Below, piece after piece: positions 3,377 through 45,415 of a DNA stretch of 64,000 nt. Within the stretch, counting starts at the first letter, position 1, and every line of letters begins with the position of its first letter. Source of the stretch: a virus (lineage: Duplodnaviria; Caudoviricetes); IMG/VR virus record IMGVR_UViG_3300037067_003400, positions 1 to 64,000 of that record, one strand, 5' to 3'. Position numbers and translations under genes: made by a program. The notes under the pieces were generated by a model. That model did no database searches. It worked only from the letters and a program-made list of their open reading frames with translations, and was not told the DNA's origin.

Positions 3377-3377
3377 G

Positions 3378-12101: not shown

Positions 12102-12575
12102 CTACTCTTCAAGGCTTTCTATTAGTGGGCCTATTCTATTTGCTAAAGTGTAATTATCAATAGGGTCATCTGGTGTAATTAATATATTAGGTAACTTTAC
12201 ATGATACCCAATTGTGTTACATATGTAACATACACGTTCTATTTCTTTTCTATACTCTTCCCAATGCTTTTTGTTTTTTGCGTTCTTTTTAAAATAAGCT
12301 GCTTCTGCTATTATGACTGCAAAAGGAGCATCGGGATAAAGTATATCTATAAATATTGGTGTGTCTACATTCCTCCAATGATAAGTACCATTCTCAATAA
12401 AAGGCTCATCTCTAAAGCTTAGCTTTAAAGCTTCTTTTATTTTATCTACTCTATTTCTTTTCCATCTTTTATTACTTAGTCTTTTTAGTGGATATATAGA
12501 GTTTTCAAATAGTCTTATTATAAAGTGGAGTATGTTAACACAATATATTTTTATTTTATTACATATCTGAATCAC
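12102..12575 (-). CDS. Possible degenerate Vsr/DUF559-like nuclease-fold protein
   Basis: FIEN...W...IFIDILYPD..FAV pattern, but the usual catalytic Glu is absent; true start is probably downstream. Confidence 0.35.
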   Translation of the reverse strand: MIQICNKIKIYCVNILHFIIRLFENSIYPLKRLSNKRWKRNRVDKIKEALKLSFRDEPFIENGTYHWRNVDTPIFIDILYPDAPFAVIIAEAAYFKKNAKNKKHWEEYRKEIERVCYICNTIGYHVKLPNILITPDDPIDNYTLANRIGPLIESLEE

Positions 12576-15500
12576 TTAGTATTGTCACTCCCAATTCTTG
12601 TTCTAATTCTGATATACTTAACTTATTTTCTTCATAAGCTATATTATCTGGATTCTTTCCAAACATAAGCATTTCTGCTGATCTTCTTGGCAGAGAATCT
12701 ACTGGATGCCAAGTAACAGAGTTTTCTATTACTACTTCTGCTACATTAGAGGGTGTCTTATTTGCTGGCACTTCTGGAGGAGGTGGCATTACAAGTGATA
12801 GTTCACTGTCTAATTTAGAGGTAGCATCTTCTGGTGTTCTTATAGACTCTACAGCATCTATATCTGTAGTATCTACTGGGAGAGCTGCTGCCGCCACAGG
12901 ATGTTTTAGTATATTGGATTGTTGTAAAGCTGTTTCTATATTACTAAGTTCGAAGTCTCCAGTAGTGAGGGCACTTTCTATCTCTGATATTATAGCATCT
13001 AACAGTGGTATATATTTTCTTGCATATATTAATTGAGAGGTTTTTTTAGTTTGATCTAATTGTAAGGTTGCATAAGTTAATTGTTTCTGACCAAAGTCAG
13101 CTATTAAGTTTCTATACTTACTAACTAAATCATATTGAGAAGATCTAAGCACAGCCATTAAAGAATCAAAAGCTCCACATTCAGTTCTGTTCAAGAAGTT
13201 ATCAAAAAAGTCATCTATTGGATCAGTTATCTGCGCAATAGTTTTAGTATATGCATCTAAAGATAACCGTAAACCCCTGTCTATAAGCATATTATGTATT
13301 TGAGACTTAGCATAATTAGCTAAGTTCTTCCAGTCGATAGACTTTATCATATAATAATGCTTTAGAGCTGACCTCATTGCTCTAAGTGATCTTAGTAATT
13401 TTTCTACACTGGTTCTACCATCATAATATGATCTACTACCAGCATTAGTTCCAAGTAAAAGATTTCTTACTAAGCATCTTTGAATTTCTCGTGCAGCTAT
13501 CTTCAACGATTCTTCTATCTCGCTTCTTAATGTGACAGACGTGTTAGCAGTTTGTTTTGAAATAGATACAATAGGAGAAATTGTAGATGAGAGAGTTGAG
13601 GTATTTGAAGAGGCATTATAGAGGCTACTGAACATATCTGATTCAATATATCCAATAGTATTTAGAAGGCTACGTTGCATAGATTCTAACTGCGAAAGGA
13701 ATAAGATTCCCTCATTAGAGTCGAAATTATTAAAATCACAGTGGTAATTTTCGTATATCTCTTTAATTATACCATTATTTGATATATCTTGTCCACTAAT
13801 TGCGTCAAGATAATCAGAAATATTTATATTATGTTTATTAATTATGCTTTGGTACTCTGTTGGCACAGGCACTAATGCGTTTGTAGTAGTAGAAATTATA
13901 CGTTCTTTTAAATTATCTATTGCTACATATTCGTCAATTAGTTTGTCTTCTGTGTCTTTTAGTTCAAGATCTATGTAGTTAACAACTAATGCTGAACCTA
14001 CTAATACATCTTCTGGTGTAAGATCTGTAGGTATTATTTCTTCTGATGTATACACCAGAGTCTTTTTATGTCCACCTCCAAAAGGTATAGAGATAAAGAT
14101 AGTCTTACTAACTTTAACTCCACCATAGAAGGAGTAGTTAAATGTATGCTTTCCTACTTGTAATTCTCTGTAAATTTCTGGGTATGTAGCAGCTCCTGCT
14201 GTGTCCAGTAGTCCAGAGGTTAATCCGCTTGTGCTTCCAGTAGGTGTTACAGTTGTATTATTGTAAGTCCAAGATGCAGTCCATGGAGTAGACGGCTGAC
14301 CAGCCGCCATAGAAAGGACAAAAGGTTTTTGATACACCGATTTAAATGGAAGTGTTACTGTTGGTGTAGCAACTGTGCCTACTTCCAAGACTGTTACCTG
14401 TACTAATTGACTATCAGTTAATGCACCATCTGATACTACTACATTAAAGTTATAAACTCCAGGTCCTTGTTCTTCAGTCGGTGTCCAGGTGAACGAGCCA
14501 CCTGTTGTCATAACTGCACCAGACGGAGCCCCAGAAAGTGTAAATGTCAATGTATTTACTGGTATATCTGGGTCTGCAGCTGTTGCTGTAAATGATAGTT
14601 GCGCTAATTCATTTATAGTTTTATTTGGTATATAAGTTAAGACTGGAGGAGCAGCTACTTCTCCAACAATCCAGTGGGTAGCTCTCATATCAGTAGCACC
14701 ATAGCTATCTGTAACTATTACATTAAAGGTATAAGTTCCAGCTCCCTGAGCTTCAGTAGGTGTCCAAGTTATAAGACCAGTACTTGGGTCTATTACACAC
14801 CCTGAGGGTTGCCCAGATAATGAGAATGTTAGAGTTTGAGCTGGAATATCTTCATCTGTAGCAGTTATCTGCATACTCATTAATGTACGTTCATTACCAG
14901 TCAGTATTGGGTCTACAGTTATAACTGGTGGAGTGTTAACAAATAAGGTTCCTACTTCTATTGATATATCTGCTGAATCTGTAAGCGCTCCATCTGATAC
15001 AACTACTGTTATAACATAAGTTAACCCTTCTTGAGACTCTGTAGGAGTCCAAGTAAAGACTCCTCCTGTTGTTATACTTGCTCCTGTAGGAGCATTAACT
15101 AATGAGAATGTAAGGGTTTGTGCAGGTACATCAGCGTCTGTAGCCGTAGCTGTAAATGTATATTCAGAGTCTCTATAAATTAATGCACTCTCTGGAACAT
15201 CTGCTATCACTGGGGCTGTATTTACTTCTGTTACAACTATCGTTACAGTTCTTTCAGCATATAGAGGTGGAGTTCCATTGTCAGTCGCTCTTACTATTAT
15301 ATAATATGTTCCAGGTCCCTGTACTTCTGTAGGTGCCCAGCTAAAGCCCCCAGTAGATGGATCTATAGTTGCTCCAGATGGAGCATCCGTTAATGAGTAT
15401 GTTAAAGTCTGAACAGGCACATCAGCATCTGTTGCTACTGCTGTAAATGTCAGTGTAGCCCCTTCAGCTACTGTCTTAGAAATTATTGGAGAAAGTGTAG

Positions 15501-18500
15501 GTGGTGTGTTTACATCTCCTACTGTAACTATTATTGTCTCCATTGCAGATAGTGGGGGAACACCATTATCAGCTACTACTACGTTAAATGTGTAGCTTCC
15601 TGGTCCTTGCACTTCAGTGGGAGTCCAACTAAATATTCCAGTGTCTACTCCAATAGATGTACCAGACGGAGCCCCAGATAAAGAGAATGTTAATATATCT
15701 GGTGGTAAGTTAGCATCAGTAGCAGTTGCTGTGAATGAAAGAGCACTTCCCTCATTAACTGTTTTGTTGCCTATTAATCCAAGCACTGGTGCTATATTAA
15801 CTGCTGATACACTAACCGTAATGGTTTCCATATCAGATAGAGGTGGTACACCATTGTCTGTAACTATTACATTGAAATTATAAACTCCAGGTCCTTGTTC
15901 TTCAGTAGGTGTCCAGGTAAAAGCTCCAGTTGGAACTATACTTGCACCAGTTGGTTCTCCAGATAAACTAAATGTTAGCGTGTTTGCTGGGATATCATCA
16001 TCAGTAGCAGTTGCTGTAAATGATAGTTGTTCTAATTCATTAACTGTCTTATTTCCTATAGAAGCTAATACTGGTGCCTGGTTAACTTCGTTTACCACTA
16101 TATTTACTATCTGAGTATCAGATCCCCATTCTGGAGTATCCGGTAAAAATATACTATCATAGTATGCTTGCGCTGCAGCTAATGAATCAAAAGTTGTGCC
16201 ATTCCAGGTGTTAAGGGTTATATTTATTGGCACAGTTTGCATATACTGCCCAGACTTACTAATTGCTGGGTCTTCTAAGACATACCAGAGTCCGTTGGTA
16301 TTTCTCATAAACATTATCTTTTCAGCTGTTGCTGCAGATAATGTAAGAGCACCAAGACTTGTCATATACGCTGGAGAAGCCACCCACTGGGTAAACTCAT
16401 CTCCATTTACTACATTGTTAAGATCTGCTCTTATATTAGTTGGAGCATAATTAGTCAGTGCAGCAAATCCTATATTTAATACTGGGTTGCTGCCCTCTCC
16501 TTCTTCTGTAATACTACTTGTATCTACTACTCTTACTGTGAAAGAATATGACCCTGGCCCCTGAACTTCAGTAGGTTCCCAGCTAAATTCTCCACTGCTA
16601 TTTAACGTAGCCCCAGAAGGTGCTCCTATTGCAGAAAATGTATAAGGTGTGACTCCTCCTACTGCTGATGCTGTAAATGATAGTGTTGCCAACTCATCAA
16701 CAGTTTTATCTTCGATAGTGGTTAGAGTAAGTATATCATATAATGCTTTACTACTATTATAAAGTGTTGTTATTTCACTACCAGCTAATGCACTATTATA
16801 TAGTCTAACTCTTCCAAGATAACTATTGAAGTAACTTGCAGTTGTGTTAGATGCTCTACCTATAATAAGATTCTGACTATTAGCTGGAGAATGCCCTGTA
16901 CAAGCTACTGTGGAACCTGCTTTAACTCCATTGACATAGTAATCTATACCACTGCCATTAAAGGTTCCTACTAAGTGATACCAATTATCTGGAGTAACTA
17001 TAACAGATTTAGCTTTACCACTTCTTGCTGCATCAAATACTGTTAATCCTACATAGGTAGAACCTGCAGAAGCAGTAGTGTAGAAATACCAGCCGTCATT
17101 AGTAGCACCTGTGCCAGTTCCCTTCATAGCAAGTTGTCTTACTGAATCAGCAGAAGGTATAAATGCCCAGGTTTCAATGGAGAAACTTGACCAAGCTTGC
17201 AGACTTACACCATTACCAGCACTTATATAAGAAGAACTACCATTAAAAGAATAGATATAATCAGTAGTAGGTCCATCAATTCTTGAAGTATTATACGCTG
17301 TACCAGTATTATCAAAACCACTATAATCTGTAATAGAAGGTCCAGCATCTTGTAAGTCATAGTCTAAAACAGCCTCATTAGGTAGTAACGTGTACTTTCT
17401 AACTTCGAAACTTGATAAAGTATCTGTTATAGTTCCTGTAACTACTGGAACTGTGGTAGTTGTTCCTCTTACATTATCTACTGTTACAGATGTAACATAG
17501 TCTTGTGGTATAGTTATTGTATGTTCTTGTGTAGAACTTGTATAGTTAGCAGCTAAACAAACTGGAACACCATTATAATCAAATGTTCTCATTACTATAT
17601 CTGCATTAGAAGTAGTTACTGGATTAGTTGCATAATCGGAGATTAAAATTGGCTCTAACTCTCTTATTTTTGATATTAAGTTTATTAGGTCTGTAGCAGT
17701 ATTAGGATTTCTATTATAAACTGTAGCGGCAGCTTCAGTGTGGAAACCAACAGCATAGAAGGTTAATCCACGAGCTCCACCTATTATAGCTAAGAATGCA
17801 TTTAGTAACATATGGTCATAGGTTAGATGTAATGTATATCCATCAACTAATTCACATGATTCTATTACATGCCATGCTGGCTTTGCTGCTACTACCTTAT
17901 CACTGAATCTCTTATATGTATTATATGCATCTAAATAACTATCATAAATATCAAGTCCACTTCTATTTTTAGAACTTATAGGATATTGATAGTTACCTGA
18001 TATGTCTCCAACATTTATACGATCAACAAAATCAGCATGGTCTCCACTTTGTGGATCAATTATAGGTTTTATAGTATCTAATGCTTTTATTGTATCGTGG
18101 TTTCTTGTCAATTCCTCAGATGCAGAGTCATATTTATCATCTGTTAGTGTATACCCACAAAGAGCTGGATTATCTTTAAATGCTGACACTGCAATTGTAA
18201 TAGCACTAAGAGTAGTAGTGGCTGCTGGTATTCTAGATAGTGCTGCCCTCCATGACAAACTACCATATGTAAATGGGTATATTGGTAAGAATGCTTTTAA
18301 TCCTATACTATCTAAAGACTCTAGATATAATTCAAAGTTTATCTGAATACTAGTAGAATCTGTTGGTATATATAAATTATATACCATAGGTATTACATAG
18401 TTAATATCAAAATCTTGCAGGTATTTTCCACTATAGCTTGTTCCATAAGATGGTGATGCAAGAGAAGCGTAAGAGGTATATCCAATTAATGGAAATATTG

Positions 18501-21500
18501 TTGTTCCATTATCTATCGTTCTACCCTTATCATCAAAGTAAATAGATGGTAATGTAGATCCTGCTGGTTTCACTATAACTGATAAGTCTTTTGTTATTAC
18601 TACTGCAGATGTTGCTTTATCTCTTACTATAGTAGTTACAGTATATTCCCCTGTAGTTGCAGCATTAAATGTAGTGAAGCTATGACTTACATCTCCGGTA
18701 TCTGGAACATCCATAATAGTAGAAGTTTCTATTATAGTATCAGTTGGGCTATATAAAGTAGCATAAGATTCTAAAGTTGATAATGCTACAGAGTTTGCAG
18801 CTGCTGTTAATTTTCCAGTTACCGTTATATTATTAGCATCCCCTTGATACCAGCACTCTAATGTATCTGGGTGTGTTATTTTAAAGTTGTATTCTGGAAT
18901 ATAGTACTCTTCTAATTTACAATCATCAAAATATACTGTGCCACTAAAATCTCCATATAACCCAACTCTATATCCTATACTATCAATGTTTTCATGTGTA
19001 GGTTGAGTTATAACAGTTAGTTCATACCAGGTATTATTAGGTAAATTAGGGTCTGTACAATTATAATAAGCTGAGTTTATAGAGGAAAATCCTTGTGATG
19101 CACTATCAAATTGTATAGGTGACATAGCTATATAACCGGTATTAGCACTGGCTGGTGAAGCTATTGTATCTATAACTTTTACGTACGTTGTTAACTTGTA
19201 TCTATAATTAGGTTGTATACCGTATACTCTGTTTTGCGCATAAGTTGAGCCATCGGCTGTAGCCTTAGTTAAACACATTGAGAAAGAGCCACTGTTATAT
19301 TCTGTGTTTACAATAGCTGTTCTTGCTGCAGTATAATTAGTCCACCCTGATAGTGTCCCTGTTTCAAATCCAGGATTTACTAGTAAGTTTCCTGTTAAAT
19401 CATTGGGTGGCACTAACTCATAAGACCTTGCGCTTAAATCTCTTATAGTATCTGTAAAGTATCCAGCAGATGTAAATAGTGTTCGTATTGAAAAATCCAT
19501 ACCATTATAGGTATCATCTAAAGAACCATACCAGACTCTTATAGTATGCGCTGGTAATCCTTGTAGATTAAATGTTACATTGCTTGTAGTAGTTCTTGTA
19601 CCTACTTTTATCTTTTCCACTGGGAGGTAAGCCTTTGTATTTGGCCATACTGTAGAACCAGTAGCAGAAGTTACAGTAAAAGTAGATGGAGATGGTGTAG
19701 TATCTATTGTGTATACTACTTCACTGTCTATCCATCCAGTAGTAGCTGGGCTATCACCATAAACCTTAGTAGCACCATTTAACCCTCTATTAAACTGTAT
19801 GGTATCCCCCGTGGTTAAGCCATGTGGGTGTGTACAATCATAAACACCAGTGCCAGCTTCAAAATGTCCCCATATAATAGATGATGTATTACCATTAGCT
19901 GCTAATATGTAGTTCTTACCATTATAGGTTCTTGTTAATACTTTTACATCTGATGCATTAGCTGATACTTGAGTAGTAGATGTTAAACCAATAACTGCAT
20001 TAGTAGCCTTAGATACAGCAGTAGCTGCTTTGTGTAATTCTAGTCTCTGCTTTTCTGATAGGTAGCTATATCTAAACCAGTCTATACCACGAGCACCAGT
20101 AATCAAAGCCATATAAGCTTCAAAAATATAATCTTTACTTCTAAGGTTTAATGGTGCTTCGTAGCATTCTAATACTGAAAGATTAGGTTTATTTAATAAC
20201 CAGTTAGTTCTAGCTTGATGGTCAAGATACGTTCTTGTAAAGTGTGGTATGTATCCTGAGGTCTCATAATGAGCATAACTAGAGTAGTAATAGTAGTATG
20301 GATACGCTGTAAATCCAGCAGCATCCATATCCATAAAGTTTCTATCTGAGGTTCTTTCTCTATAACAATGGTCTATAAATACAATGTTTTCTTTATCCCA
20401 ACTCTTAATTTTTGCATATCTATCTTTACAAAAAGCTACTTCATCAGTAGATTCTGGCTCTTCAAATATCATCCAGCCTAGCATAGCTGGATGTGATTTA
20501 AATGTATCTACCATACCAGAGGCTACCATATCAGGGGTAGTCCAGCTTATACCACATGTTGGGTCAGTAAATGAATACTGCATATTTGCTGGGGCCACAA
20601 ATATAGAAGATGGTGAAGCTGCATTAAGACACCATAGATAATCTAATCCAACAGTAGCACATTCATCTAACCTTGTTCTTAGACCAGTTAATCCCTCTCC
20701 CGTATTAGCACTACCATATCTTGAGAAATAGTCATGGATAGCTGTAAAACCAGAATCCTTTAATGTCTGCAACATAGAAACTCTGTTGACTAATGGGAAA
20801 TTTCCTACGTCAGTTGATACCCACTGCACTATTGGGAAGTAAGGTGTGCCACTCTTTAGAAATCTACCATAGCGGTCAATAGAAACCTTTTCTCTGGGTT
20901 GGGTCTTATATTCTATGTTACGTGTGTAACGTTTCTCCGTGCCGTCGTAGCTTGAAACTATACTGCTATCTGCTACATTATAGATATAGGTATCTAAGAT
21001 ATAAGAGGACGCAGATATCCCAGTCATAGGGAGTTCAATATCTATATAGTTAAGCCCATTAGCTATAGAAGTAGTTGCTGAAGATATAACTGTAGATGTG
21101 TTAACATTTTTAAGTAAAAGTGCTAGTCCCAAAGCAGTTGGATTTACTGTATTGGATTGTATAAAGTTTCTTGTATATAAAGAAGATGGTTCATCAGTAT
21201 AAATTCTATTATTATAAGGTAGACTGCATAGAAATACTGGGTCTCCTGGTAGTAGTTGCCCACCCTGAGGGTCTGTTACCCTGAGTTGCACATCATCTAT
21301 TAAAGCTGATCCAACAGTAGATTGATTAAGTCGTATTTTGAAATAGTGCTTAGGAGCTACGATTGTAGGAACTTCATCTACGAAGTTTGCTACATCAGTG
21401 GATCTTTCATTAGATAATGGGACAGAAAGGTAGCACCCAGAGAGCCCTGTAGCTGATCCTGCTATTACATCATAGTAAAAATATGAAGACCATTTGACTT

Positions 21501-23805
21501 GTTGCCAATCTCCAGTTCCAGTTACATTAGGAGTGTTAACTAATTGTGATGCCTGAGAACCTCCAGTTTCACCTAACCATGGCGATATATAATAAAAAGC
21601 CCAGCTTGTTCCAACATTAAGTGATGGTTTTATCCAGTAAGATAATTCTATCTGACTCCCATAAGGTATATCTGTTACAATATGTGTAAGGTCTAACCCA
21701 CCAGTTGCCGTTGAGTCCTTCCTTAACTCAACCATCTGTTTAAAAACGCCATTATGGTCTAAGGCAGAAGTAACATAACCAGTAGCTACAGGTGTAGTTG
21801 AACTACCCGTAAGATACCATGGGAAAGAGTTACCCCTTATTGCTGATAAAGCATCTGTATTTGTAACAAAGTTTTTAGGTATCATTTCGTATAGTTGATA
21901 TCCATATCCTGTAATAGTATCAGTGAAAGTTCCTGTTGTAACCTGCCCAAGATAAGTTGGAACATCTGAAGGTAGTCCTTTCTTAATGTTATATCCGTTT
22001 AAGGAAGAACTTGTAAATGTAACAGTCTTATCTGCTGCACCAAGATTAGCAAGTAGTATATACTTCTGTCCATTAGTACCTATTCTTGTTAATGCACTTA
22101 CGTCTAATGTGTCTACTGTTACTTGAGTAGAAGCGTCTAAACCAAGAGCAACATGTGTAAGGCTATTCATTGCAGTAGCTACTCTATCAATAGAGCTTTG
22201 TCTTACTGTACCTATCTGATAATGGTATGGGTAGAATGCTAAACCACGAGCTCCAGCTATTAGAGCCTGGAAGCACATGTTCATCATTTGAGCAGAAGTT
22301 GGAACATTACCACTATCTACATGCATCTGCCCACATTCTATAATCTGCCATAGTGGTTTATGCTGAAGACCAGAATCATAGATTCTTGCTATTGCTGTGC
22401 TTACACCAGATAGAGCAGTGCTATCGTGCACTGGGTATTTATCGTATCCTACTACTTCTGTAAAGTCATTACTTACTTCTAAGGATTTTACATTATCTGC
22501 ATGAACAGCCCATAGTGGGTGGTTAGGATCGTTAGCTTTTACCCAATCAGCCGCAACTTGTAAAGTGTCATAGTATTCCTGGTTAAAATACTCTTGTCCT
22601 ACTTCTTCACATATATGCCACGCAAGTAACCCAGACATAGTCTTGTTATCTGTAACTGCTGATACATAGGATGTAGTTAATTCTGAGGCTACTGCATTAG
22701 GATATGCATGTTCTACACCATCTTTATATTTATTAGAAGCTTGAGCTAAGTATGGTCCACAGGTGTATCTATAAAGTGGAGCTATATACTTAAGTCCATA
22801 ATTTCTATACTGTGTTTGTAATGCTTCTGTGTCCCTTAGCCAAGAGTAGTACATTAACGTATTAAATTTAGCGGCTATTATTTTGTTAATATTACTTGCT
22901 TCATCTGGTAGATGAGGTGCTTGTGTCCAAGCTATTAGTGGGAAAAATAAATTACCATCAACTACACAACGTTTATATTCATCAAAATAAACCGAAGGCT
23001 TAGTAGAACTTGCACTAATAGTAAAATCATAATCTTTATTTAGAAATAGTGCACTGTTAGCAGCAGTTCCTATTGATAGGTTTACATGATAAGTTCCAGC
23101 TGCTAAAGAAGAGGCATCATGAAGTATTGTTTTGTATCCACTGGTAGCATAAGTAGTAGCATCTCTTGTTACCTGTGTAACATGAGAAGAGTTTTCAATT
23201 CTTGAGTTTACTACTATAGCACTAAGTGGTGTATCTGTTGTTGGGAATAAGTAAAAACCTACTTTAACTTCTTTATCTTCGTCGGAATGTATAATTGCTT
23301 TATAATTAGGCTTTACTAAATCATAGAAAGGAACTACAGTTGGGTCTGCTGATAATGATACACTATCTAACCATACATACCCTCCACTTGTTCCAATACC
23401 ACCACCAAGTTTAAAGTATATCTTTGAGATAGCTGTACTACGGTTATACATATAGGCAGTTATCTGTGTCCAGTCCCCCGTAGCTCCTACATTTCTACAT
23501 TGTATAGAATCTGCATAGCATACTGTGCTATCAGAGGCATCTAGTCCTCTAATATCTGTATAGAATGGGGCATCTGCAGCTCCAGAGGTCTTAACCATAA
23601 AGGAAATTATATACTTACCAGCTACTGGAACAGCAGGAGTTTGATAGATAGATTGTATAGTTCCTACAGTTACACTTAAATCTATTTTGGCACAGCCACC
23701 AGAATATCCTGCTGGGTCTATAGTTATAGCGTCCCAGTTACCTCTACCTGAATTCCATCCAGTAAAGTTAGTATCTAAAGTCCCATTTGTAAGTAATTCT
23801 GCCAT
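12559..23805 (-). CDS. Giant (3748 aa) multidomain protein: 3 x [CBM-like + TIM-barrel glycoside-hydrolase-like + beta-sandwich], LamG, 7 cadherin/putative-Ig repeats, helical C-terminus
   Basis: Three copies of F/ID..GR/KR...G..FP...W/Y..[ED][ED]...YP...A...GARG..F; NLLVNPGFETG CBM-like start; LamG W.HLVGTFNG...Y.NG; repeats TATD.D.P...LTFSL...P.GA.I...G.F.W.PT..QG. Confidence 0.8.
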   Translation of the reverse strand: MAELLTNGTLDTNFTGWNSGRGNWDAITIDPAGYSGGCAKIDLSVTVGTIQSIYQTPAVPVAGKYIISFMVKTSGAADAPFYTDIRGLDASDSTVCYADSIQCRNVGATGDWTQITAYMYNRSTAISKIYFKLGGGIGTSGGYVWLDSVSLSADPTVVPFYDLVKPNYKAIIHSDEDKEVKVGFYLFPTTDTPLSAIVVNSRIENSSHVTQVTRDATTYATSGYKTILHDASSLAAGTYHVNLSIGTAANSALFLNKDYDFTISASSTKPSVYFDEYKRCVVDGNLFFPLIAWTQAPHLPDEASNINKIIAAKFNTLMYYSWLRDTEALQTQYRNYGLKYIAPLYRYTCGPYLAQASNKYKDGVEHAYPNAVASELTTSYVSAVTDNKTMSGLLAWHICEEVGQEYFNQEYYDTLQVAADWVKANDPNHPLWAVHADNVKSLEVSNDFTEVVGYDKYPVHDSTALSGVSTAIARIYDSGLQHKPLWQIIECGQMHVDSGNVPTSAQMMNMCFQALIAGARGLAFYPYHYQIGTVRQSSIDRVATAMNSLTHVALGLDASTQVTVDTLDVSALTRIGTNGQKYILLANLGAADKTVTFTSSSLNGYNIKKGLPSDVPTYLGQVTTGTFTDTITGYGYQLYEMIPKNFVTNTDALSAIRGNSFPWYLTGSSTTPVATGYVTSALDHNGVFKQMVELRKDSTATGGLDLTHIVTDIPYGSQIELSYWIKPSLNVGTSWAFYYISPWLGETGGSQASQLVNTPNVTGTGDWQQVKWSSYFYYDVIAGSATGLSGCYLSVPLSNERSTDVANFVDEVPTIVAPKHYFKIRLNQSTVGSALIDDVQLRVTDPQGGQLLPGDPVFLCSLPYNNRIYTDEPSSLYTRNFIQSNTVNPTALGLALLLKNVNTSTVISSATTSIANGLNYIDIELPMTGISASSYILDTYIYNVADSSIVSSYDGTEKRYTRNIEYKTQPREKVSIDRYGRFLKSGTPYFPIVQWVSTDVGNFPLVNRVSMLQTLKDSGFTAIHDYFSRYGSANTGEGLTGLRTRLDECATVGLDYLWCLNAASPSSIFVAPANMQYSFTDPTCGISWTTPDMVASGMVDTFKSHPAMLGWMIFEEPESTDEVAFCKDRYAKIKSWDKENIVFIDHCYRERTSDRNFMDMDAAGFTAYPYYYYYSSYAHYETSGYIPHFTRTYLDHQARTNWLLNKPNLSVLECYEAPLNLRSKDYIFEAYMALITGARGIDWFRYSYLSEKQRLELHKAATAVSKATNAVIGLTSTTQVSANASDVKVLTRTYNGKNYILAANGNTSSIIWGHFEAGTGVYDCTHPHGLTTGDTIQFNRGLNGATKVYGDSPATTGWIDSEVVYTIDTTPSPSTFTVTSATGSTVWPNTKAYLPVEKIKVGTRTTTSNVTFNLQGLPAHTIRVWYGSLDDTYNGMDFSIRTLFTSAGYFTDTIRDLSARSYELVPPNDLTGNLLVNPGFETGTLSGWTNYTAARTAIVNTEYNSGSFSMCLTKATADGSTYAQNRVYGIQPNYRYKLTTYVKVIDTIASPASANTGYIAMSPIQFDSASQGFSSINSAYYNCTDPNLPNNTWYELTVITQPTHENIDSIGYRVGLYGDFSGTVYFDDCKLEEYYIPEYNFKITHPDTLECWYQGDANNITVTGKLTAAANSVALSTLESYATLYSPTDTIIETSTIMDVPDTGDVSHSFTTFNAATTGEYTVTTIVRDKATSAVVITKDLSVIVKPAGSTLPSIYFDDKGRTIDNGTTIFPLIGYTSYASLASPSYGTSYSGKYLQDFDINYVIPMVYNLYIPTDSTSIQINFELYLESLDSIGLKAFLPIYPFTYGSLSWRAALSRIPAATTTLSAITIAVSAFKDNPALCGYTLTDDKYDSASEELTRNHDTIKALDTIKPIIDPQSGDHADFVDRINVGDISGNYQYPISSKNRSGLDIYDSYLDAYNTYKRFSDKVVAAKPAWHVIESCELVDGYTLHLTYDHMLLNAFLAIIGGARGLTFYAVGFHTEAAATVYNRNPNTATDLINLISKIRELEPILISDYATNPVTTSNADIVMRTFDYNGVPVCLAANYTSSTQEHTITIPQDYVTSVTVDNVRGTTTTVPVVTGTITDTLSSFEVRKYTLLPNEAVLDYDLQDAGPSITDYSGFDNTGTAYNTSRIDGPTTDYIYSFNGSSSYISAGNGVSLQAWSSFSIETWAFIPSADSVRQLAMKGTGTGATNDGWYFYTTASAGSTYVGLTVFDAARSGKAKSVIVTPDNWYHLVGTFNGSGIDYYVNGVKAGSTVACTGHSPANSQNLIIGRASNTTASYFNSYLGRVRLYNSALAGSEITTLYNSSKALYDILTLTTIEDKTVDELATLSFTASAVGGVTPYTFSAIGAPSGATLNSSGEFSWEPTEVQGPGSYSFTVRVVDTSSITEEGEGSNPVLNIGFAALTNYAPTNIRADLNNVVNGDEFTQWVASPAYMTSLGALTLSAATAEKIMFMRNTNGLWYVLEDPAISKSGQYMQTVPINITLNTWNGTTFDSLAAAQAYYDSIFLPDTPEWGSDTQIVNIVVNEVNQAPVLASIGNKTVNELEQLSFTATATDDDIPANTLTFSLSGEPTGASIVPTGAFTWTPTEEQGPGVYNFNVIVTDNGVPPLSDMETITVSVSAVNIAPVLGLIGNKTVNEGSALSFTATATDANLPPDILTFSLSGAPSGTSIGVDTGIFSWTPTEVQGPGSYTFNVVVADNGVPPLSAMETIIVTVGDVNTPPTLSPIISKTVAEGATLTFTAVATDADVPVQTLTYSLTDAPSGATIDPSTGGFSWAPTEVQGPGTYYIIVRATDNGTPPLYAERTVTIVVTEVNTAPVIADVPESALIYRDSEYTFTATATDADVPAQTLTFSLVNAPTGASITTGGVFTWTPTESQEGLTYVITVVVSDGALTDSADISIEVGTLFVNTPPVITVDPILTGNERTLMSMQITATDEDIPAQTLTFSLSGQPSGCVIDPSTGLITWTPTEAQGAGTYTFNVIVTDSYGATDMRATHWIVGEVAAPPVLTYIPNKTINELAQLSFTATAADPDIPVNTLTFTLSGAPSGAVMTTGGSFTWTPTEEQGPGVYNFNVVVSDGALTDSQLVQVTVLEVGTVATPTVTLPFKSVYQKPFVLSMAAGQPSTPWTASWTYNNTTVTPTGSTSGLTSGLLDTAGAATYPEIYRELQVGKHTFNYSFYGGVKVSKTIFISIPFGGGHKKTLVYTSEEIIPTDLTPEDVLVGSALVVNYIDLELKDTEDKLIDEYVAIDNLKERIISTTTNALVPVPTEYQSIINKHNINISDYLDAISGQDISNNGIIKEIYENYHCDFNNFDSNEGILFLSQLESMQRSLLNTIGYIESDMFSSLYNASSNTSTLSSTISPIVSISKQTANTSVTLRSEIEESLKIAAREIQRCLVRNLLLGTNAGSRSYYDGRTSVEKLLRSLRAMRSALKHYYMIKSIDWKNLANYAKSQIHNMLIDRGLRLSLDAYTKTIAQITDPIDDFFDNFLNRTECGAFDSLMAVLRSSQYDLVSKYRNLIADFGQKQLTYATLQLDQTKKTSQLIYARKYIPLLDAIISEIESALTTGDFELSNIETALQQSNILKHPVAAAALPVDTTDIDAVESIRTPEDATSKLDSELSLVMPPPPEVPANKTPSNVAEVVIENSVTWHPVDSLPRRSAEMLMFGKNPDNIAYEENKLSISELEQELGVTILSDSDM

Positions 23806-40529: not shown

Positions 40530-41033
40530 ATGTTTAAAGGAGACCAATTCTTTCTCAGTAACTTCTACCCCGTCAGTATCAATTATGACGGGGACGTTTA
40601 TCCTTCAGTGGAGAATGCTTTTCAGGCGGCTAAAACTGCTAAAGAAAACAGAGCTCCATTTCTTACTTGTCACCCATCTATAGCTAAGAAGCTTGGTAGA
40701 AAAGTTAAGCTTAGAAAAGATTGGGAGAAGAGTAAAAAAGACTTGTTGCTTTACTTATTGAAAGTAAAGTTTATGCATCCAGAGCTACGTAAAAGGTTAT
40801 TGTCTACTGGTAATACAATACTGGTAGAAGAGAATACGTGGCACGATAACTTTTGGGGAAAATGTATTTGTCCCCTATGTGATAGTGTCTCACATCTTAA
40901 TGTTCTTGGTGACTTGCTTATGCAGGTTAGGGAGTCTATGAAACAGCTTCAAGTTAAAACTCAAGGCTCTAAAAAACCTACTTATTATTATATCAAAGGA
41001 GATACTGAAAGTATCACCGTCAAAGGAGATTGA
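40530..41033 (+). CDS. NADAR (YbiA-like) family protein
   Basis: FLSNFY, SVENAFQAAK, KKLGR..W, KF...LL.TG...LVE, D.FWG, N.LG.LLM.VR. Confidence 0.9.
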   Translation: MFKGDQFFLSNFYPVSINYDGDVYPSVENAFQAAKTAKENRAPFLTCHPSIAKKLGRKVKLRKDWEKSKKDLLLYLLKVKFMHPELRKRLLSTGNTILVEENTWHDNFWGKCICPLCDSVSHLNVLGDLLMQVRESMKQLQVKTQGSKKPTYYYIKGDTESITVKGD

Positions 41034-41034
41034 T

Positions 41035-41688
41035 ATGAAAATCTATACAGATGGTTCTTATGACGTTGCCCGAGAAATGGGTTCGTGGGCATATGTAACT
41101 GAAGCTGGAGAATCTGCCTCCGGCATTATAGCTTATCCAGAGGCTCGTAACATTGATGGAGAGATTTTAGCTGTGATAATGGCTATAGACAAATATCCAG
41201 AAGCTCAAATCTTCACAGACTTACAGGGTATACCAAGATGGGTTTCCAAAAAGTGGAAAGCCAATACACTTGTATCACAGAACTTGCAGAATTTTATGAC
41301 TGGAAGAAAGAATGTTATCACGTGGGTTAAAGGACACAGTGGAAACCCAACCAACGAGCAAGTGCACAAGTTAGCATCTTCGATTCTAAAGTCAGAAGAA
41401 GCTACCAAGATATACAACCGTAAAAAGTGCAGGGCTCAATACTCCCCAGAGTTTAATACTCTACCTGATACTTTTAAAAAGACTATAATAGGTGATGTAG
41501 TCCAAGAGGCTATAGCAAATAATATAGTCTTCAACTTCGAGAGACCAGATTATGGTATCACTGAATTTCTTGCTGATTATGGCTTAGAGTTTATGAGTGG
41601 CAAAACCAATTTCATAGGCACTAAAGATATGTCAGTAGAGACACAGCTTATTATAGTCAAGAAGCTTGTTAATGCTCTTGTCTTGTGA
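41035..41688 (+). CDS. rnhA: Ribonuclease HI-like protein
   Basis: IYTDGS, GEILA, IFTD, WVKGHSG..NE; the last catalytic Asp appears replaced by His (NEQVHKLA). Confidence 0.85.
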   Translation: MKIYTDGSYDVAREMGSWAYVTEAGESASGIIAYPEARNIDGEILAVIMAIDKYPEAQIFTDLQGIPRWVSKKWKANTLVSQNLQNFMTGRKNVITWVKGHSGNPTNEQVHKLASSILKSEEATKIYNRKKCRAQYSPEFNTLPDTFKKTIIGDVVQEAIANNIVFNFERPDYGITEFLADYGLEFMSGKTNFIGTKDMSVETQLIIVKKLVNALVL

Positions 41689-41775
41689 TTTATGCCCTGC
41701 GACCTTTTCTGAGTGGATCCCTATGCTCCAATATGCTTAGTGGATCCCTCTTAACTTTTTAACTCTTGCTATGGT

Positions 41776-43311
41776 ATGGATATTCTTTCCATAGCTATTC
41801 CTGTTATCAGTAAGCTACAACAATACTTAGTATGCTTACTTAAGGGGAGTAATTCCCAGAAAGAGAGAGTTAAGTTGGACACTGAATCTAAATCTTCAGT
41901 AGTTCGAACAGGCTTTGAGGTTACAAGCCAGTTGCAAACAATGGGCGGAGTCTCATCATCCGAATTTGTTTGGAATAGAAAAAACCTAAGGAATACTATC
42001 TTTGACCCTTGTTTTATGGGCAAAGATGTATACATTGACCTTCTCAAAGTGTCGAATGGCACTGGTTTCCCAATGTATGAGGATGGTATTCCTCTTCAGC
42101 TAATACTTATTCCTTGGGATTTACGCAAGGACTTAAAGAAGAACTATAATGGAACCTATCTGCTTAGTGGGTTGTTAGCATCTGCTAATGAGCTTGCAGG
42201 TGAGGTTTCAAAGGCTAAAGTTTCTGGTGATATAAAGAGAGTTCAATCTTTAGTAACCAGAACTTGTTGCGCTTATGCTGAAGAACTATTGAGAACTCTC
42301 AATATAGATTTAGCACGACCAAGAAATAAATTATCTGGGAACCTTGTTGCCGTCCCAGATATAAGACACGATATCTTCTCGAGTTTAACTGCCTTTAAGA
42401 GAGGCTTGATTTCAGACTTGAGACCTGGTGAGATAGGTGTCTCTACTAAGGTTCTTAACAAAATTAATAACGGGAGAGACGTTCCAAAACGTATTGTTAA
42501 GAATGGTGACTATTTCATCACGAGTCGTTGGCCGTGCACTGATGTGCGTCCAATGAAGATTGTTGAACGGAATGAACATTCCTTTGTTGCTTACGTGTCA
42601 GCTGATTGGTTTACAACTACAGAGCACGAAGCTCCTATTCAACAGATGAAACTCTTCGAAGGAGACAACGACGGAGACACATTATTCTTCAACTTTGTTA
42701 CACATGTAGCAGAGGTGATGGATATATATGATAAGTTTATGGACGACGTAACCGTAGTTCCATTTACTCCAATGTCTTTAACTTATTTAGACCACGAGGT
42801 CTTAGATTGTAACGAGTTGCAGATAGCAACTGATAAGGCAGACCAGAAGAACTGGATTATGCCTTTAAGTGCAGCTATGTATGCTGGTTATGCTTTTATG
42901 GAGAACCGTGAACAACAAGGTCTCCCAGTCAATATGACTAAGCTTGAGTGGTGTGAAACTATGACTCAGGCTTTAGAGTTGTGCTTTGATAAAAAGCATA
43001 ATAATAATTCTAACCCTCGTCCTTTATATGGTATGCTCCAAGCAAAAGAGGGTTATACGTGGAATGCTGTTGTTAAGTTGCTGGAAGTCCAGAATCTTAA
43101 CATTGACATCCTTTACAAAATGCACGAAATGCTTGACGGTCAATCCCTAAGAGAAGCCGCAAGTGCTAATCTTCCGTTTAAAGTCGTGCACCAAATGCGT
43201 GGTGCTGATACTAAGAAACGCTTACAAACCATAGAAGCTTTGCTTCAGCAACCTGAACTTTGTAAGTGGTTTGTTTCTAACCTAGTTCCATCTTTACAAG
43301 GAGAGTGTTAA
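41776..43311 (+). CDS. Minimal RNA polymerase beta'-like (catalytic double-psi barrel) subunit
   Basis: FEGDNDGD ~ NADFDGD; SRWP ~ NRAP; LIPWDLR ~ VLPPDLR; SGNLVAVPD ~ SGRSVIVVG. Start codon uncertain. Confidence 0.8.
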   Translation: MDILSIAIPVISKLQQYLVCLLKGSNSQKERVKLDTESKSSVVRTGFEVTSQLQTMGGVSSSEFVWNRKNLRNTIFDPCFMGKDVYIDLLKVSNGTGFPMYEDGIPLQLILIPWDLRKDLKKNYNGTYLLSGLLASANELAGEVSKAKVSGDIKRVQSLVTRTCCAYAEELLRTLNIDLARPRNKLSGNLVAVPDIRHDIFSSLTAFKRGLISDLRPGEIGVSTKVLNKINNGRDVPKRIVKNGDYFITSRWPCTDVRPMKIVERNEHSFVAYVSADWFTTTEHEAPIQQMKLFEGDNDGDTLFFNFVTHVAEVMDIYDKFMDDVTVVPFTPMSLTYLDHEVLDCNELQIATDKADQKNWIMPLSAAMYAGYAFMENREQQGLPVNMTKLEWCETMTQALELCFDKKHNNNSNPRPLYGMLQAKEGYTWNAVVKLLEVQNLNIDILYKMHEMLDGQSLREAASANLPFKVVHQMRGADTKKRLQTIEALLQQPELCKWFVSNLVPSLQGEC

Positions 43312-43312
43312 T

Positions 43313-45271
43313 ATGGAATTTGCATATGAAATCGAGAAAGACCTATTTGAAATATATAAAATAGGTTTAGAGAAGTTCCTTGTTCTAAACTATAAGGGCA
43401 AGGAATATAAGACCAGAATTCCTATCACAAGTGATGGTAGGATAATACTGCCTTCAGGTTCTCAGCCTGTGTTTAGAAAGACTGTCGAAATCACATATGA
43501 TGATTTCAAGCCAGAAGTCAAGATGTATCAGAACATTGAGCAGTGGATTATAAAAGACTGCCAAGACCCTAAACTTCAGGGTTATATAGTTAGTATGCTG
43601 AAGCAGTCAGAGGGTGATGTCTCTGCTTGTGAAAACTTAGTTCGTGGTTTGCTTCTTAAATCATTGAATAAGTTTTATAAGTCTACTACGGTTTGGGAAG
43701 ACCCTGGTTCAGATTTTGAGTGTTTTGCTCAGAAGCTAACCTATGTCTTAGCAGATGGTGTGCCTCCTACTCGTAGAGGCGGATTCTTCCCTGATTCAGT
43801 AACTAAACACAGATTGACATTTCTCCGAGCTTTAGAAAATCAGGGAGTGTCTTCCTTGTGTGCAACTCAGCCCGGTGACCCGGGCACAACAGCTGATTGG
43901 GTTGATAAAGCAACTGGACTTCCTGTTTATATGGGAATTCAGCCGATGGCTTTAGAATGTCATCCTATGCGTTATGCTATTCAGAGAGGCTTAACGCATT
44001 TTGTTAAGTTACAAAACTCTGAAGCTCCATTTGTTAATGTAGAAGAGACATTAAAGTATCCGTCTCTTCAGACTGTGAATGCTAATGTCATTTGCGGAGA
44101 CTTAGGTCTTAACGATTCGGTGATTATTTCCCAGGACTTAGCAGATAGACTTACTGGTCTTGAGGATGAGGTTCACACCCATACTCTTGACGGTTTGATA
44201 ACTTGCAGAGGTGAAAGTGAGCCTTTAACTTTCCCAAGCGTCGTGAAGAGAAGTATGCTTCAGAAGACTGAAACTGCTTATGATGTCTTTGTGAGATATC
44301 GCAGACTATGGCTCTCCAAGTATGGGGATGAGAGCAAGGTTAGCCAAGTTCGTAAGAAACATCTTCTTAGTGTGATGAAAACGTGCCCGCTATTAAGTGT
44401 GGTATGTCCTGATGTTCAGGAACGTATCCACTTGAATATGTATAACTGTGAGTATGGAGAAAATAGCTCCGAGAGTTTTACTAAGTTTCGCAGATGGTTA
44501 CAACTTAATGACAAATATGCGACAGATATGTTGCCTTTTAACCATCTTAATCAGCCTGTGTCAAGAAGATTTCCCGGTGTGGGAATTGATAGACTTATAG
44601 CTGAATCTAATTCCGGTAGAAGTGTTCTTTATAAAGAATTTCACGGAATTGACAAGAATAAATGCCGAGTCGGTGCTAAGTTACAGACCGACGCAGACTT
44701 AGCAAAAGGTGTTTGTAACATCTTTGAGAATGAGCGTATGCCATTTATCAAGAGAGCTGATGGCACTATGGTTAGAGCAGATTTAGTCGTTGATATGGCT
44801 AAATCGACCAAGAAACACGGTTCTCTTCGTTTTGCTCATCTAACTATGGCTTTATATGCTATAGGACAAGCTAAAGGCGGTATAACCGTAAAGGTTTCTG
44901 AGCCGTGGAGTGATGAGAAGATTGTTGCAACTGGTAAGAGATTGGGTATCTATGATGATGAGTCTCTTACTTGTGAGATGTGGAATGATACACAGACTCA
45001 CGTTCTTGGGAAATTTCCTGCCGGCGTTATCCGTATAGGTAGACATCGTCAAGACCCTGATATTCAGGGCGGTGTCGTTGGTGAGTTAGGCAAGAAAGAG
45101 TTAACTGCAAGAAACGTTCTTAAAGAATCTGGAGTTAGAGATGGTTTTATTGATACTAACGTTCAGATGGCTTTTGGTTTCATAGAGTCAGCTAAAGAAC
45201 TCAGGCGTGTAACTCCCAGTGCAAAGAAGAAAGTTAATGCACTTGAGAGAGTTTTAGTGTTCAATAACTAA
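43313..45271 (+). CDS. Minimal RNA polymerase beta-like subunit
   Basis: NDSVIISQDL ~ EDAILISERL; GAKL...KGVC....RMPF...DG...DLVV ~ GDKL...KGVV....DMPF..DG..VDIV; SGVRDG.....MAFG ~ GGQRFG.....EAYG; SEAPFV ~ AEAPIV. Confidence 0.85.
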   Translation: MEFAYEIEKDLFEIYKIGLEKFLVLNYKGKEYKTRIPITSDGRIILPSGSQPVFRKTVEITYDDFKPEVKMYQNIEQWIIKDCQDPKLQGYIVSMLKQSEGDVSACENLVRGLLLKSLNKFYKSTTVWEDPGSDFECFAQKLTYVLADGVPPTRRGGFFPDSVTKHRLTFLRALENQGVSSLCATQPGDPGTTADWVDKATGLPVYMGIQPMALECHPMRYAIQRGLTHFVKLQNSEAPFVNVEETLKYPSLQTVNANVICGDLGLNDSVIISQDLADRLTGLEDEVHTHTLDGLITCRGESEPLTFPSVVKRSMLQKTETAYDVFVRYRRLWLSKYGDESKVSQVRKKHLLSVMKTCPLLSVVCPDVQERIHLNMYNCEYGENSSESFTKFRRWLQLNDKYATDMLPFNHLNQPVSRRFPGVGIDRLIAESNSGRSVLYKEFHGIDKNKCRVGAKLQTDADLAKGVCNIFENERMPFIKRADGTMVRADLVVDMAKSTKKHGSLRFAHLTMALYAIGQAKGGITVKVSEPWSDEKIVATGKRLGIYDDESLTCEMWNDTQTHVLGKFPAGVIRIGRHRQDPDIQGGVVGELGKKELTARNVLKESGVRDGFIDTNVQMAFGFIESAKELRRVTPSAKKKVNALERVLVFNN

Positions 45272-45340
45272 GGTACGGCCTTCGGCCTACCTACTACGAC
45301 TTACTTTACCACACTTTATATCTCTCGAGTTGATGGGATT

Positions 45341-45377
45341 GGGAGCCTGCCCTTAGCGGGGTGGGCTCCCCCTTTTT
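45341..45377 (+). terminator. Intrinsic terminator after the RNAP genes
   Basis: GGGAGCCTGCCC/GGGTGGGCTCCC stem (with G-U pairs) followed by CCTTTTT. Confidence 0.75.
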
Positions 45378-45415
45378 GGCTTCTGAAAGCCATATCACAA
45401 TTCCCGTCAGAAAAG

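Follow-up and report, generated by a model that had tools for sequence, protein, structure and literature searches.

We identified, in a 64,000-nucleotide stretch of phage DNA (hereafter the window), two adjacent genes that probably encode the two halves of a single DNA-dependent RNA polymerase (RNAP) of the two-barrel β/β′ type, about 1,100-1,160 residues in total. The window covers the initial 64 kb of an IMG/VR phage contig (IMGVR_UViG_3300037067_003400) of 210,951 bp, with an estimated completeness of 98%. Homology, fold, conserved catalytic residues, a predicted heterodimer and naturally fused forms support this assignment, and we infer the activity of the enzyme, its DNA template, its targets and its recognition of promoters. 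As far as our searches reach, the pair is a rare, previously undescribed lineage and architecture of β/β′-type two-barrel RNAP. The genes are arranged as follows:

41776..43311, + strand: gene of the β′-like catalytic subunit, a 511-amino-acid open reading frame (ORF), or possibly about 478 amino acids from TTG 41875
43313..45271, + strand: gene of the β-like subunit, a 652-amino-acid ORF

The initial annotation had proposed such a two-protein enzyme of about 1,160 amino acids with β′ preceding β. The proposal is upheld by the cognate subunit folds found with Foldseek and with an independent structure alignment (VIA), and by a complex prediction that passes.

We assembled enriched alignments of both families (A3, 23 β′-like sequences; A4, 17 β-like sequences). 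Eight residues are invariant in two-barrel RNAPs, namely R446, P448 and three aspartates of Rpb1 and D837, K979 and K987 of Rpb2 (PMC2919709). All eight equivalents are conserved here: R251, P253, D297 and D299 in 23/23 sequences, D301 in 22/23, D268 in 16/17, and K456 and K465 in 16/16, among homologues that share only 16-47% identity. The match of the motifs exceeds chance, since they are invariant across 17-23 divergent homologues and both structural models match only cognate RNAP subunits. The metal-binding loop is encoded exactly where it had been placed at the outset. H502, H578 and Q580 are also invariant in the β-like homologues. The elements on which the assignment turns are these:

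42322..42339, + strand: switch-2-like motif R183-N-K-L-S-G188, aligned to GRFRGNLSGKR of archaeal Rpo1N; R183 invariant (23/23)
42526..42534, + strand: R251-W-P253, equivalents of Rpb1 R446/P448, aligned to NRQPSLH and invariant (23/23)
42664..42678, + strand: metal-binding D297-N-D-G-D301; G296, D297, D299 and G300 invariant, D301 in 22/23
42814..43308, + strand: C-terminal helical region of the β′-like protein (residues ~347-511), replacing the whole C-terminal half of β′, from secondary structure and conservation
44111..44116, + strand: N267-D268 in the first half of the β barrel, aligned to LEDAIVISES of phage AR9; D268 (16/17) corresponds to Rpb2 D837
44186..44557, + strand: all-helical insert (residues ~292-415) between the β-barrel halves, at the site of the cellular flap, from DSSP of the model and alignment A4
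44678..44707, + strand: barrel lysines K456...K465-G466, corresponding to K1065/K1073 of E. coli β and K979/K987 of Rpb2; both lysines in 16/16
45125..45268, + strand: C-terminal tail of the β-like protein (residues 605-652), of low model confidence alone and with confident β′ contacts in the predicted complex

Extreme divergence and heavy domain loss might also be expected of a decayed, non-catalytic RNAP remnant that now serves as a DNA- or RNA-binding protein or a decoy. However, every universal catalytic residue is kept at this level of identity and uninterrupted versions of both ORFs occur in many independent contigs, and we consider such a remnant the most improbable of the explanations weighed here. 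We therefore return to a catalytic enzyme and to the evidence from each subunit.

A PDB profile search with the five-sequence alignment A1 of the β′-like family gave no match, and the enriched alignment A3 was needed for success. The profile then matches archaeal Rpo1N (E 6e-4), plant Pol IV NRPD1 and the largest Pol II subunit, Rpb1, and its alignment to Rpo1N spans the RxRxxxSG (switch 2), GDxVxxxRxP and DxDGD blocks. With hhalign, residues 111-308 align collinearly to E. coli β′ 244-471 (E 0.0024), placing LIPWDLR on VLPPDLRP (β′ 244-251), followed by the clamp helices and then NADFDGD. The analogues of β′ motifs first noticed ahead of DNDGD are thus confirmed, by the collinearity of LIPWDLR with the E. 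coli motif and by the agreement of the Rpo1N blocks.

The AlphaFold2 model of the β′-like protein (predicted local distance difference test, pLDDT, 83.5; predicted template modelling score, pTM, 0.77) finds only β′, Rpb1 or A′ chains among its best 50 Foldseek matches in the PDB, headed by chain d of the AR9 enzyme (7S01; 1e-5). VIA aligned 394 residues to human Pol I A190 (Z 12.4, root-mean-square deviation (rmsd) 5.0) and 411 residues, model positions 40-511, to positions 16-1257 of the M. tuberculosis β′ chain (Z 10.2). The N-terminal β′ piece of AR9 was matched over model positions 42-336 only (Z 9.1). Matches to single-chain enzymes were P23-45 gp96 (Z 9.0), QDE-1 (Z 8.9), maize RDR2 (Z about 9) and P74-26 gp62 (Z 7.0). 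Model positions 184-327 match isolated double-psi β-barrel (DPBB) domains, including the designed DPBB 7DWW (Z 9.2, rmsd 1.9), VAT-N and CDC48-N, as well as RNAP barrels.

The β′-like chain runs about 185-210 amino acids beyond its barrel. This region comprises a helix of 34 residues (347-380), in which Q357-K358 are conserved, and then a strongly conserved block, E401..D405-x-K407-H/K408. The segment 397-408 may be the remodelled trigger element that the initial annotation suggested. VIA aligned archaeal A′ to model residues 22-387. Archaeal A′ ends shortly past the bridge helix. Since the alignment stops at residue 387, helix 347-380 may correspond to the bridge helix, although assignment to the funnel is equally possible. 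The hhalign match to E. coli β′ 615-657 was insignificant (E 0.57).

The β-like profile matches chain C of the AR9 non-virion RNAP (7S00; E 1.3e-6) and then bacterial β. Its LNDSVIIS, GAK(456)...K(465)G and MPF...DG motifs align to both barrel halves of AR9 chain C, and hhalign places residues 448-545 onto E. coli β 1057-1152, with K456 and K465 on K1065 and K1073. A collinear series of β motifs had been reported initially. The barrel lysines and MPF..DG are borne out by both AR9 and E. coli, and the GQRFG-like C-terminal motif is a weaker match (606-633 against the GGQRFGEME region at β 1266-1293, hhalign E 0.4), in which G607 and G611 are conserved.

The AlphaFold2 model of this protein (pLDDT 77.7, pTM 0.70) gives an even clearer picture of its affiliation. 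The best 50 Foldseek matches in the PDB are all β or Rpb2 chains (1e-11), and VIA returned Z scores of 23.6-19.1 against seven cellular or large-virus β/Rpb2 chains, among them plastid β (Z 23.6) and Xanthomonas β, for which model positions 8-603 align to 55-1304 (Z 21.4, rmsd 4.1, 381 residues). AR9 chain C (Z 19.1, rmsd 2.9, 210 residues aligned) and the phiKZ piece (Z 18.5) both cover only positions ~198-586. The next unrelated fold scores Z 5.7 and QDE-1 scores Z 5.0. Searches of ESM Atlas, with language-model features and with Atlas structure models, recovered Rpb2 and Rpb1/LEF-9 clusters for the two proteins, in agreement with BFVD. For the β′-like protein the nearest Atlas structure cluster was that of LEF-9 (TM 0.36, from a poor Atlas model).

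An earlier prediction of double-psi barrels in both chains thus held, in that the AlphaFold models match DPBB domains and RNAP barrels. In the β-like model, positions ~250-290 and 417-580 match the DPBB set at Z ~5 and β barrels at Z 19-24. The protein is clearly, as judged from its model, of the DNA-dependent β/Rpb2 type rather than the RNA-dependent RNA polymerase (RdRP) type, because it scores Z 19-24 against β/Rpb2 and only 5.0 against QDE-1.

These scores bear directly on the suggestion that the pair uses another template or makes another product, as an RNA-dependent RNAP of the QDE-1/RDR kind or a DNA polymerase resembling archaeal PolD. In its favour, QDE-1 and maize RDR2 match the β′-like model at Z ~9, and no carboxylate is conserved at the position of Rpb2 E836, as in RdRPs and YonO-like proteins. 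The much higher scores of the β-like model against DNA-dependent enzymes oppose it, as do the conservation of switch 2, a mark of DNA-dependent enzymes (PMC2919709), with an invariant R183, and a domain order opposite to that of QDE-1 and YonO. We regard this as a very improbable alternative to a DNA-dependent RNAP.

We predicted the complex formed by β′ residues 42-511 and β residues 198-652 in three runs, with three controls. The interface score ipSAE was 0.85 (0.86, 0.84 and 0.85 in the individual runs) and 0.00 for the best control; partner pLDDT never fell below 68, and the runs had at least 90% of their contacts in common. In the predicted interface, β′ 297-300 lies opposite β-like residues 452-456 and 465-469, and the two barrels are predicted to face each other and form one active site. 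The β-like tail (605-652), disordered when modelled alone, rests on β′ 105-116 and 164-175.

The family to which the pair belongs is rare. A word-indexed search of 5.8 billion proteins returned two relatives per protein, and when 1.84 billion cluster representatives were scanned exhaustively with a HMMER profile, the β′-like family had just 25 matches. Neither protein has a match in Pfam (E up to 1) or PHROGs. No match was found by tblastn of both proteins and of the fused relative P0018 against 50,697 phage records, and nothing belonging to the family was detected in 185,579 prokaryotic species genomes searched with alignment A1. A search of viral contigs with the single β-like protein gave no related locus. 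We found no account of this RNAP family in the literature, within incomplete coverage. Nothing in Pfam, PHROGs, the phage genomes or the literature therefore places it in a phage RNAP clade already described, a possibility the initial annotation had raised.

In the relatives found, the arrangement of two neighbouring genes with β′ before β is kept wherever the contig extends far enough. This holds for about ten metagenomic phage contigs, several of 210-217 kb:

Contigs with the adjacent pair: L001/L006 (217 kb), L003, L004, L005, L007 (213 kb), L009 (121 kb), L010, L011 and L012

On L005, the β-like gene is split into two ORFs of 426 amino acids (1549-2829) and 235 amino acids (2848-3555), with the break just past the helical insert. 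Read from the sequence, the L005 enzyme would have three polypeptides, unless the break is an assembly or frameshift artefact.

Nine of the 25 β′-profile matches are fused proteins of 931-1045 amino acids in which β′ precedes β. Their N-terminal ~400-490 residues match the β′-like profile and their C-terminal ~450-540 residues the β-like profile (E 1e-21 to 1e-53); they skip positions ~277-403 of the β-like profile (A2). Pfam found nothing meaningful in the nine. One of them, P0027, is encoded on a 210-kb phage contig with similar neighbours (RNase H, YpsA, Macro and radical SAM). In an unrooted maximum-likelihood tree of the β′ module, one branch with 100/98 support parts the fused from the split forms. 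We consider these natural fusions the strongest argument that the pair is one enzyme and a complete unit: the pair looks self-contained, at the level of sequence, because relatives of 931-1045 amino acids join both modules in one chain, again with β′ first.

The closest known enzymes are the non-virion RNAPs of the jumbo phages AR9 and phiKZ (7S00/7S01, 7OGP), which provide the best sequence match of the pair, the best β′ Foldseek match and the low-rmsd match of the core. Like the pair, they are encoded by jumbo phages and have no α or ω. They consist of four β/β′ pieces (N-β′, C-β′, N-β and C-β) and a fifth subunit, are of roughly bacterial total size, and have β′ split directly after the barrel (PMC7598289). 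In contrast, the enzyme described here has two chains, each with a reduced version of both halves, in the order β′ then β; a helical insert stands in place of the sandwich-barrel hybrid motif (SBHM) flap, and Pfam does not recognize it.

This likeness raises the question of whether the pair represents only the barrel-bearing pieces of a split enzyme of the phiKZ/AR9 kind, for which other β/β′-derived or accessory subunits elsewhere in the 211-kb genome would be needed. The sequence and low-rmsd matches, the jumbo-phage host genome and the requirement of known jumbo-phage enzymes for a fifth, unrelated subunit (PMC7598289) are all compatible with this. Pfam is also blind even to both known pieces, so divergent extra ones could hide. 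However, the fused relatives hold just these two modules. Full-length β and β′ chains, moreover, align to both ends of the models (8-603 and 40-511), whereas the AR9 pieces align only to 198-586 and 42-336. Because full-length homologues align to the N- and C-terminal parts of the models, the seemingly missing halves are already present in reduced form: in the predicted models aligned by VIA, the N- and C-terminal halves of the cellular homologue each have a smaller equivalent within the corresponding small chain.

Searches of the rest of the genome point the same way. A six-frame hidden Markov model search recovered no paralogue of either subunit. The Pfam models Rpb1_2, Rpb2_6, Rpb1_5 and Rpb2_1 had no match in the genome (E up to 10 for Rpb1_2 and Rpb2_6), and α (PF01000) and ω (PF01192) had none at E up to 10, with controls positive in 14/14 genomes for both sets. 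PF00940 (T7-like RNAP) had no match in the genome, but its control was silent as well, which makes this negative uninformative. An all-against-all BLASTP comparison of neighbours revealed no conserved third gene beside the pair. The genome-wide search for further subunits that had been called for therefore ended without β/β′ pieces, α or ω being detected in this 98%-complete genome. Overall, a four-polypeptide split of the phiKZ/AR9 type was set aside, as there are only two polypeptides, β′ continues beyond its barrel, further pieces were not detected and fused relatives exist; we consider that the pair is unlikely to be part of a larger split enzyme and continue to favor a two-subunit RNAP.

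The pair also differs from the other known small two-barrel enzymes. YonO of the Bacillus prophage SPβ (PMC5467207) is likewise a small phage two-barrel RNAP without α, ω or flap; it shares the DNDGD motif (at ~531-535 of 838 residues; 839 amino acids as annotated), both enzymes may lack a canonical trigger loop, and the fused relatives of the pair are, like YonO, single chains. However, YonO has the order β-like then β′-like, whereas the family of the pair has β′ then β in both split and fused forms. In hhalign comparisons of A3 and A4 with YonO, a single-sequence target of limited sensitivity, the probability was at most 0.25% and only the 17-column metal motif aligned. On the opposite domain order and the lack of profile similarity, we rejected membership in the YonO group. 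Outside the barrels YonO is reported to resemble RdRPs, whereas the β-like protein of the pair matches β/Rpb2 at Z 19-24 and QDE-1 only at Z 5.

The LEF-9/LEF-8 enzymes of baculoviruses and nudiviruses (PMC2919709) resemble the pair in having two separate reduced subunits, with a β′-like chain of ~500 amino acids and both barrels and switch 2 retained. They differ in being insect-virus enzymes of presumed eukaryotic ancestry that work with p47 and LEF-4. LEF-8-type proteins were weak matches in BFVD; we detected no sequence similarity of the pair to LEF-8 or LEF-9, and the structural matches are weak. P23-45 gp96/gp64, P74-26 gp62, the crAss-like phi14:2 gp66 and QDE-1 (PMC10770324) are minimal two-barrel cores like the pair, yet single chains, and some are smaller (gp62, ~592 residues). 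Single-chain two-barrel RNAPs, save QDE-1 (Z 5.0), were not among the best 50 matches of the β-like model.

The likeness to cellular β and β′ extends over the fold beyond the barrels, with 367-419 and 337-411 residues aligned. Shared motifs include LPxxLR, the clamp coiled coil, switch 2, an NADFDGD-type loop, GxK...KG and MP..DG. Outside the β′ barrel, the LPxxLR motif, the clamp coiled coil and switch 2 are present, and outside the β barrel the model contains the N-terminal and hybrid-binding parts and the C-terminal clamp segment. In contrast to its cellular counterparts, each subunit is less than half the size and not seen by the Pfam RNAP models, the gene order is reversed, and there is neither an SBHM flap nor an α2/ω platform. 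The SBHM flap separates cellular and jumbo-phage β from YonO/RdRP-type enzymes (Iyer and Aravind; PMC7824862). We found no such flap in the β barrel of the pair: the insert at 292-415 is all-helical in the model, occurs in the split forms and is missing altogether from the fused relatives.

The suggestion made initially that the enzyme is near-minimal stands in part: it is small for the β/β′ type but not the smallest, given YonO (839 amino acids) and P74-26 gp62. ESM Atlas also contains a bacterial cluster (with Chloroflexota among its members) of proteins of ~1,006 amino acids that carry both the Rpb2_6 and the Rpb1_2 Pfam domains. This cluster is another compact fused β/β′ enzyme class worth comparing with the family of the pair. 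The pair is thus reduced, yet YonO, gp62 and the ~1,006-amino-acid bacterial proteins are smaller.

We also noted a possible cryptic RNAP in a cultured jumbo phage, Acinetobacter phage vB_AbaM_ME3 (KU935715). Its hypothetical protein ME3_309 (224453-226849; 798 amino acids) matches the β-like model in BFVD (E 6e-9, 659 aligned columns). ME3_307 (222114-223115), on the same strand just downstream of ME3_309, has DVDGD at ~34-38 and is preceded by ME3_308 and an unannotated 460-nt gap. Judging from the fold match, ME3_309 and ME3_307 may constitute a β-then-β′ RNAP. As a sequence relative of the pair, ME3 was rejected, as its genome contains no match to the A3 or A4 profile and hhalign is insignificant; it stays a lead at the level of fold alone.

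Given these analyses, we propose the following mechanism. The β′-like subunit would contribute a barrel with the Mg-binding residues D297/D299/D301, R251, P253, the switch-2 residue R183 and a clamp-like coiled coil (helices 132-180). The β-like subunit would contribute the second barrel, with K456 and K465 contacting the substrate and the 3′ end and D268 serving the second metal. The two barrels would pack face to face to create a single active site, and the β-like C-terminal tail would wrap the β′-like clamp and hold the heterodimer together, allowing assembly without α or ω subunits. YonO (PMC5467207) and the non-virion enzymes of AR9 and phiKZ (PMC7598289) offer an analogy for its role: the enzyme would most likely be synthesised once infection has begun and go on to transcribe phage genes of a later class.

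It is plausible, rather than probable, that the heterodimer and its fused relatives go further and form a self-sufficient minimal core. Such a core would represent a deep lineage distinct from cellular, phiKZ/AR9, YonO/RdRP and crAss/P23-45 enzymes, and would perform promoter-specific phage transcription with no α or ω, flap or canonical trigger loop. In that case, the choice of promoters might be conferred by a phage factor of the sigma-70 family that docks on the clamp coiled coil. The initial annotation had reported no α, ω or sigma in the window; α and ω were not detected genome-wide either, and a sigma-70-family gene was found outside the window:

G000:C1:78862-79581 (L014:1369-2088): gene of a complete sigma-70-family protein of 239 amino acids, with regions 2, 3 and 4 above Pfam cut-offs

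This protein could redirect the host RNAP or, conceivably, serve the small phage RNAP, in which the β′-like subunit retains a clamp-type coiled coil. Sigma70_r2 is matched in one of the two searchable relatives (present in G001; not in G002, which is 84% complete), and co-occurrence thus gives no support for a sigma factor dedicated to the pair. A sigma-70 consensus scan stayed at chance level (22 sites found, 21.1 expected).

The genomic setting is that of a non-structural gene block. Minus-strand structural genes (portal, terminase and a 3,748-amino-acid immunoglobulin (Ig)/lectin protein) occupy 1-31.7 kb, and a plus-strand non-structural block from ~32.3 kb holds the pair. Two genes lie directly upstream:

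40530-41033: NADAR gene, directly upstream of the region of the pair
41035-41688: RNase H gene, immediately upstream of the β′-like gene

Beyond the window, the downstream genes encode an RNA ligase, Ro60, an intein-containing ribonucleotide reductase (RNR), RecA, uracil-DNA glycosylase, a clamp loader, a clamp, a UvrD-type helicase and PolA.

An RNase H gene also occurs within a few kilobases of the RNAP genes in L001, L003, L007 and L025, and a role in DNA replication is conceivable, in which the enzyme would synthesise primers, or form R-loops, at the origins of the phage, and the neighbouring RNase H would then process them. A scan of large replication-region ORFs (at least 300 amino acids, 64-124 kb), which is not exhaustive, found no clear primase of the DnaG or archaeo-eukaryotic type, only a DUF3854/Toprim-like protein. 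For jumbo phages in which RNase H1 is present but a primase is missing, priming by RNAP has been raised (Iyer et al., PMC7824862). However, these loci belong to phages that are related to one another, whose synteny may simply reflect common descent, and all characterised phage two-barrel RNAPs transcribe genes. We judge a replication role quite unlikely, and retain gene transcription as the function proposed for the pair.

Several considerations weigh against the assignment of the pair as a complete DNA-dependent RNAP. The case is wholly computational and the relatives are all metagenomic. The Pfam models miss even both known proteins, and equally divergent extra pieces would escape them; non-homologous accessory subunits like phiKZ gp68 or AR9 gp226 may also exist. 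The bridge helix and trigger loop are placed only tentatively in the C-terminal region of the β′-like protein and could not be mapped residue by residue. In the β-like family, position 267 (Rpb2 E836) varies among N/M/D/T/K/E/Q/L, as this position does in RdRPs and YonO-like proteins. A search for k-mers enriched in intergenic and upstream regions revealed no distinctive promoter motif, only sigma-70-like words (TGGGTATA, GTATAAT). The pass mark of the complex prediction was reached by 58/80 solved complexes and 2/110 mismatched pairs, and this calibration is only rough here, as our own alignments were used. Also, the pass may partly echo solved RNAPs, reflecting likeness rather than binding.

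Cellular RNAPs are large, ~400-kDa machines, and most of what is inferred about the parts truly needed to transcribe DNA processively comes from a handful of unusual viral enzymes. Here, ~1,100 residues keep a recognisable β/β′ architecture, with the clamp coiled coil, switch 2, both barrels and the β C-terminal clamp segment. The natural split and fused forms suggest a compact, expressible system and a possible minimal model of such enzymes, in which the assembly of barrels without α/ω, the replacements of flap and trigger loop and the finding of promoters could be addressed. The family also indicates that cryptic RNAPs, missed by Pfam, PHROGs and BLAST alike, occur in jumbo phages other than those of the phiKZ group. 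COG0085/0086 hidden Markov models have been used to survey phage RNAPs (PMC7481178); surveys with such profile models would likely miss these enzymes and thus undercount the transcriptional autonomy of phages. For structure-based phylogenies of the two-barrel superfamily, the family offers a new branch.

The two ORFs are as first described, with the second ATG one nucleotide past the first stop and an AAGGAG ribosome-binding site. The TAA of the β′-like gene lies at 43309-43311 and the next ATG at 43313, with one base between. Both ORFs are real and, judged from this junction, translationally coupled. Sequence signals around the genes are as follows:

41712-41722 and 41739-41749: two copies, 27 nt apart, of the direct repeat AGTGGATCCCT
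43298..43303, + strand: AAGGAG ribosome-binding site of the β-like gene, inside the 3′ end of the β′-like gene and 9 nt before ATG 43313
45341..45380, + strand: intrinsic-terminator-like hairpin (13-bp stem, 9 G-C pairs, T-run) that ends the two-gene unit

The called start of the β′-like ORF, ATG 41776, is doubtful, because the ~44 N-terminal residues are not conserved and are poorly modelled (pLDDT <50) and an in-frame TTG at 41875 fits the homologues better. No ribosome-binding site precedes ATG 41776. The TTG is preceded by purine-rich AGAAAGAGAGAG, and the resulting product of ~478 amino acids matches the N-termini of homologues better. The 11-nt repeat AGTGGATCCCT falls within the 87 nt that separate the RNase H stop from the start of the β′-like gene, and could be an operator or promoter element. 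Directly after the β-like stop, upstream of the classical terminator, there is also an imperfect hairpin, GGTAC-GGCC-TTC-GGCC-TACC (45272-45293).

Other genes of the genome show unusual features. The 3,748-amino-acid ORF (12559-23805, - strand) was considered as a virion RNAP and rejected, as it contains Ig, lectin and carbohydrate-binding module domains instead. It lies between portal and terminase genes and carries He_PIG/Big_9 Ig repeats, Laminin_G_3 and CBM_4_9; from these domains it is a putative giant fibre- or adhesin-like structural protein. The RNR large subunit (1,164 amino acids; G000:C1:87639-91133, L023:3639-7130) contains a LAGLIDADG homing-endonuclease (intein-like) insert, and a Ro60/TROVE gene (85403-86998) is located just upstream of it.

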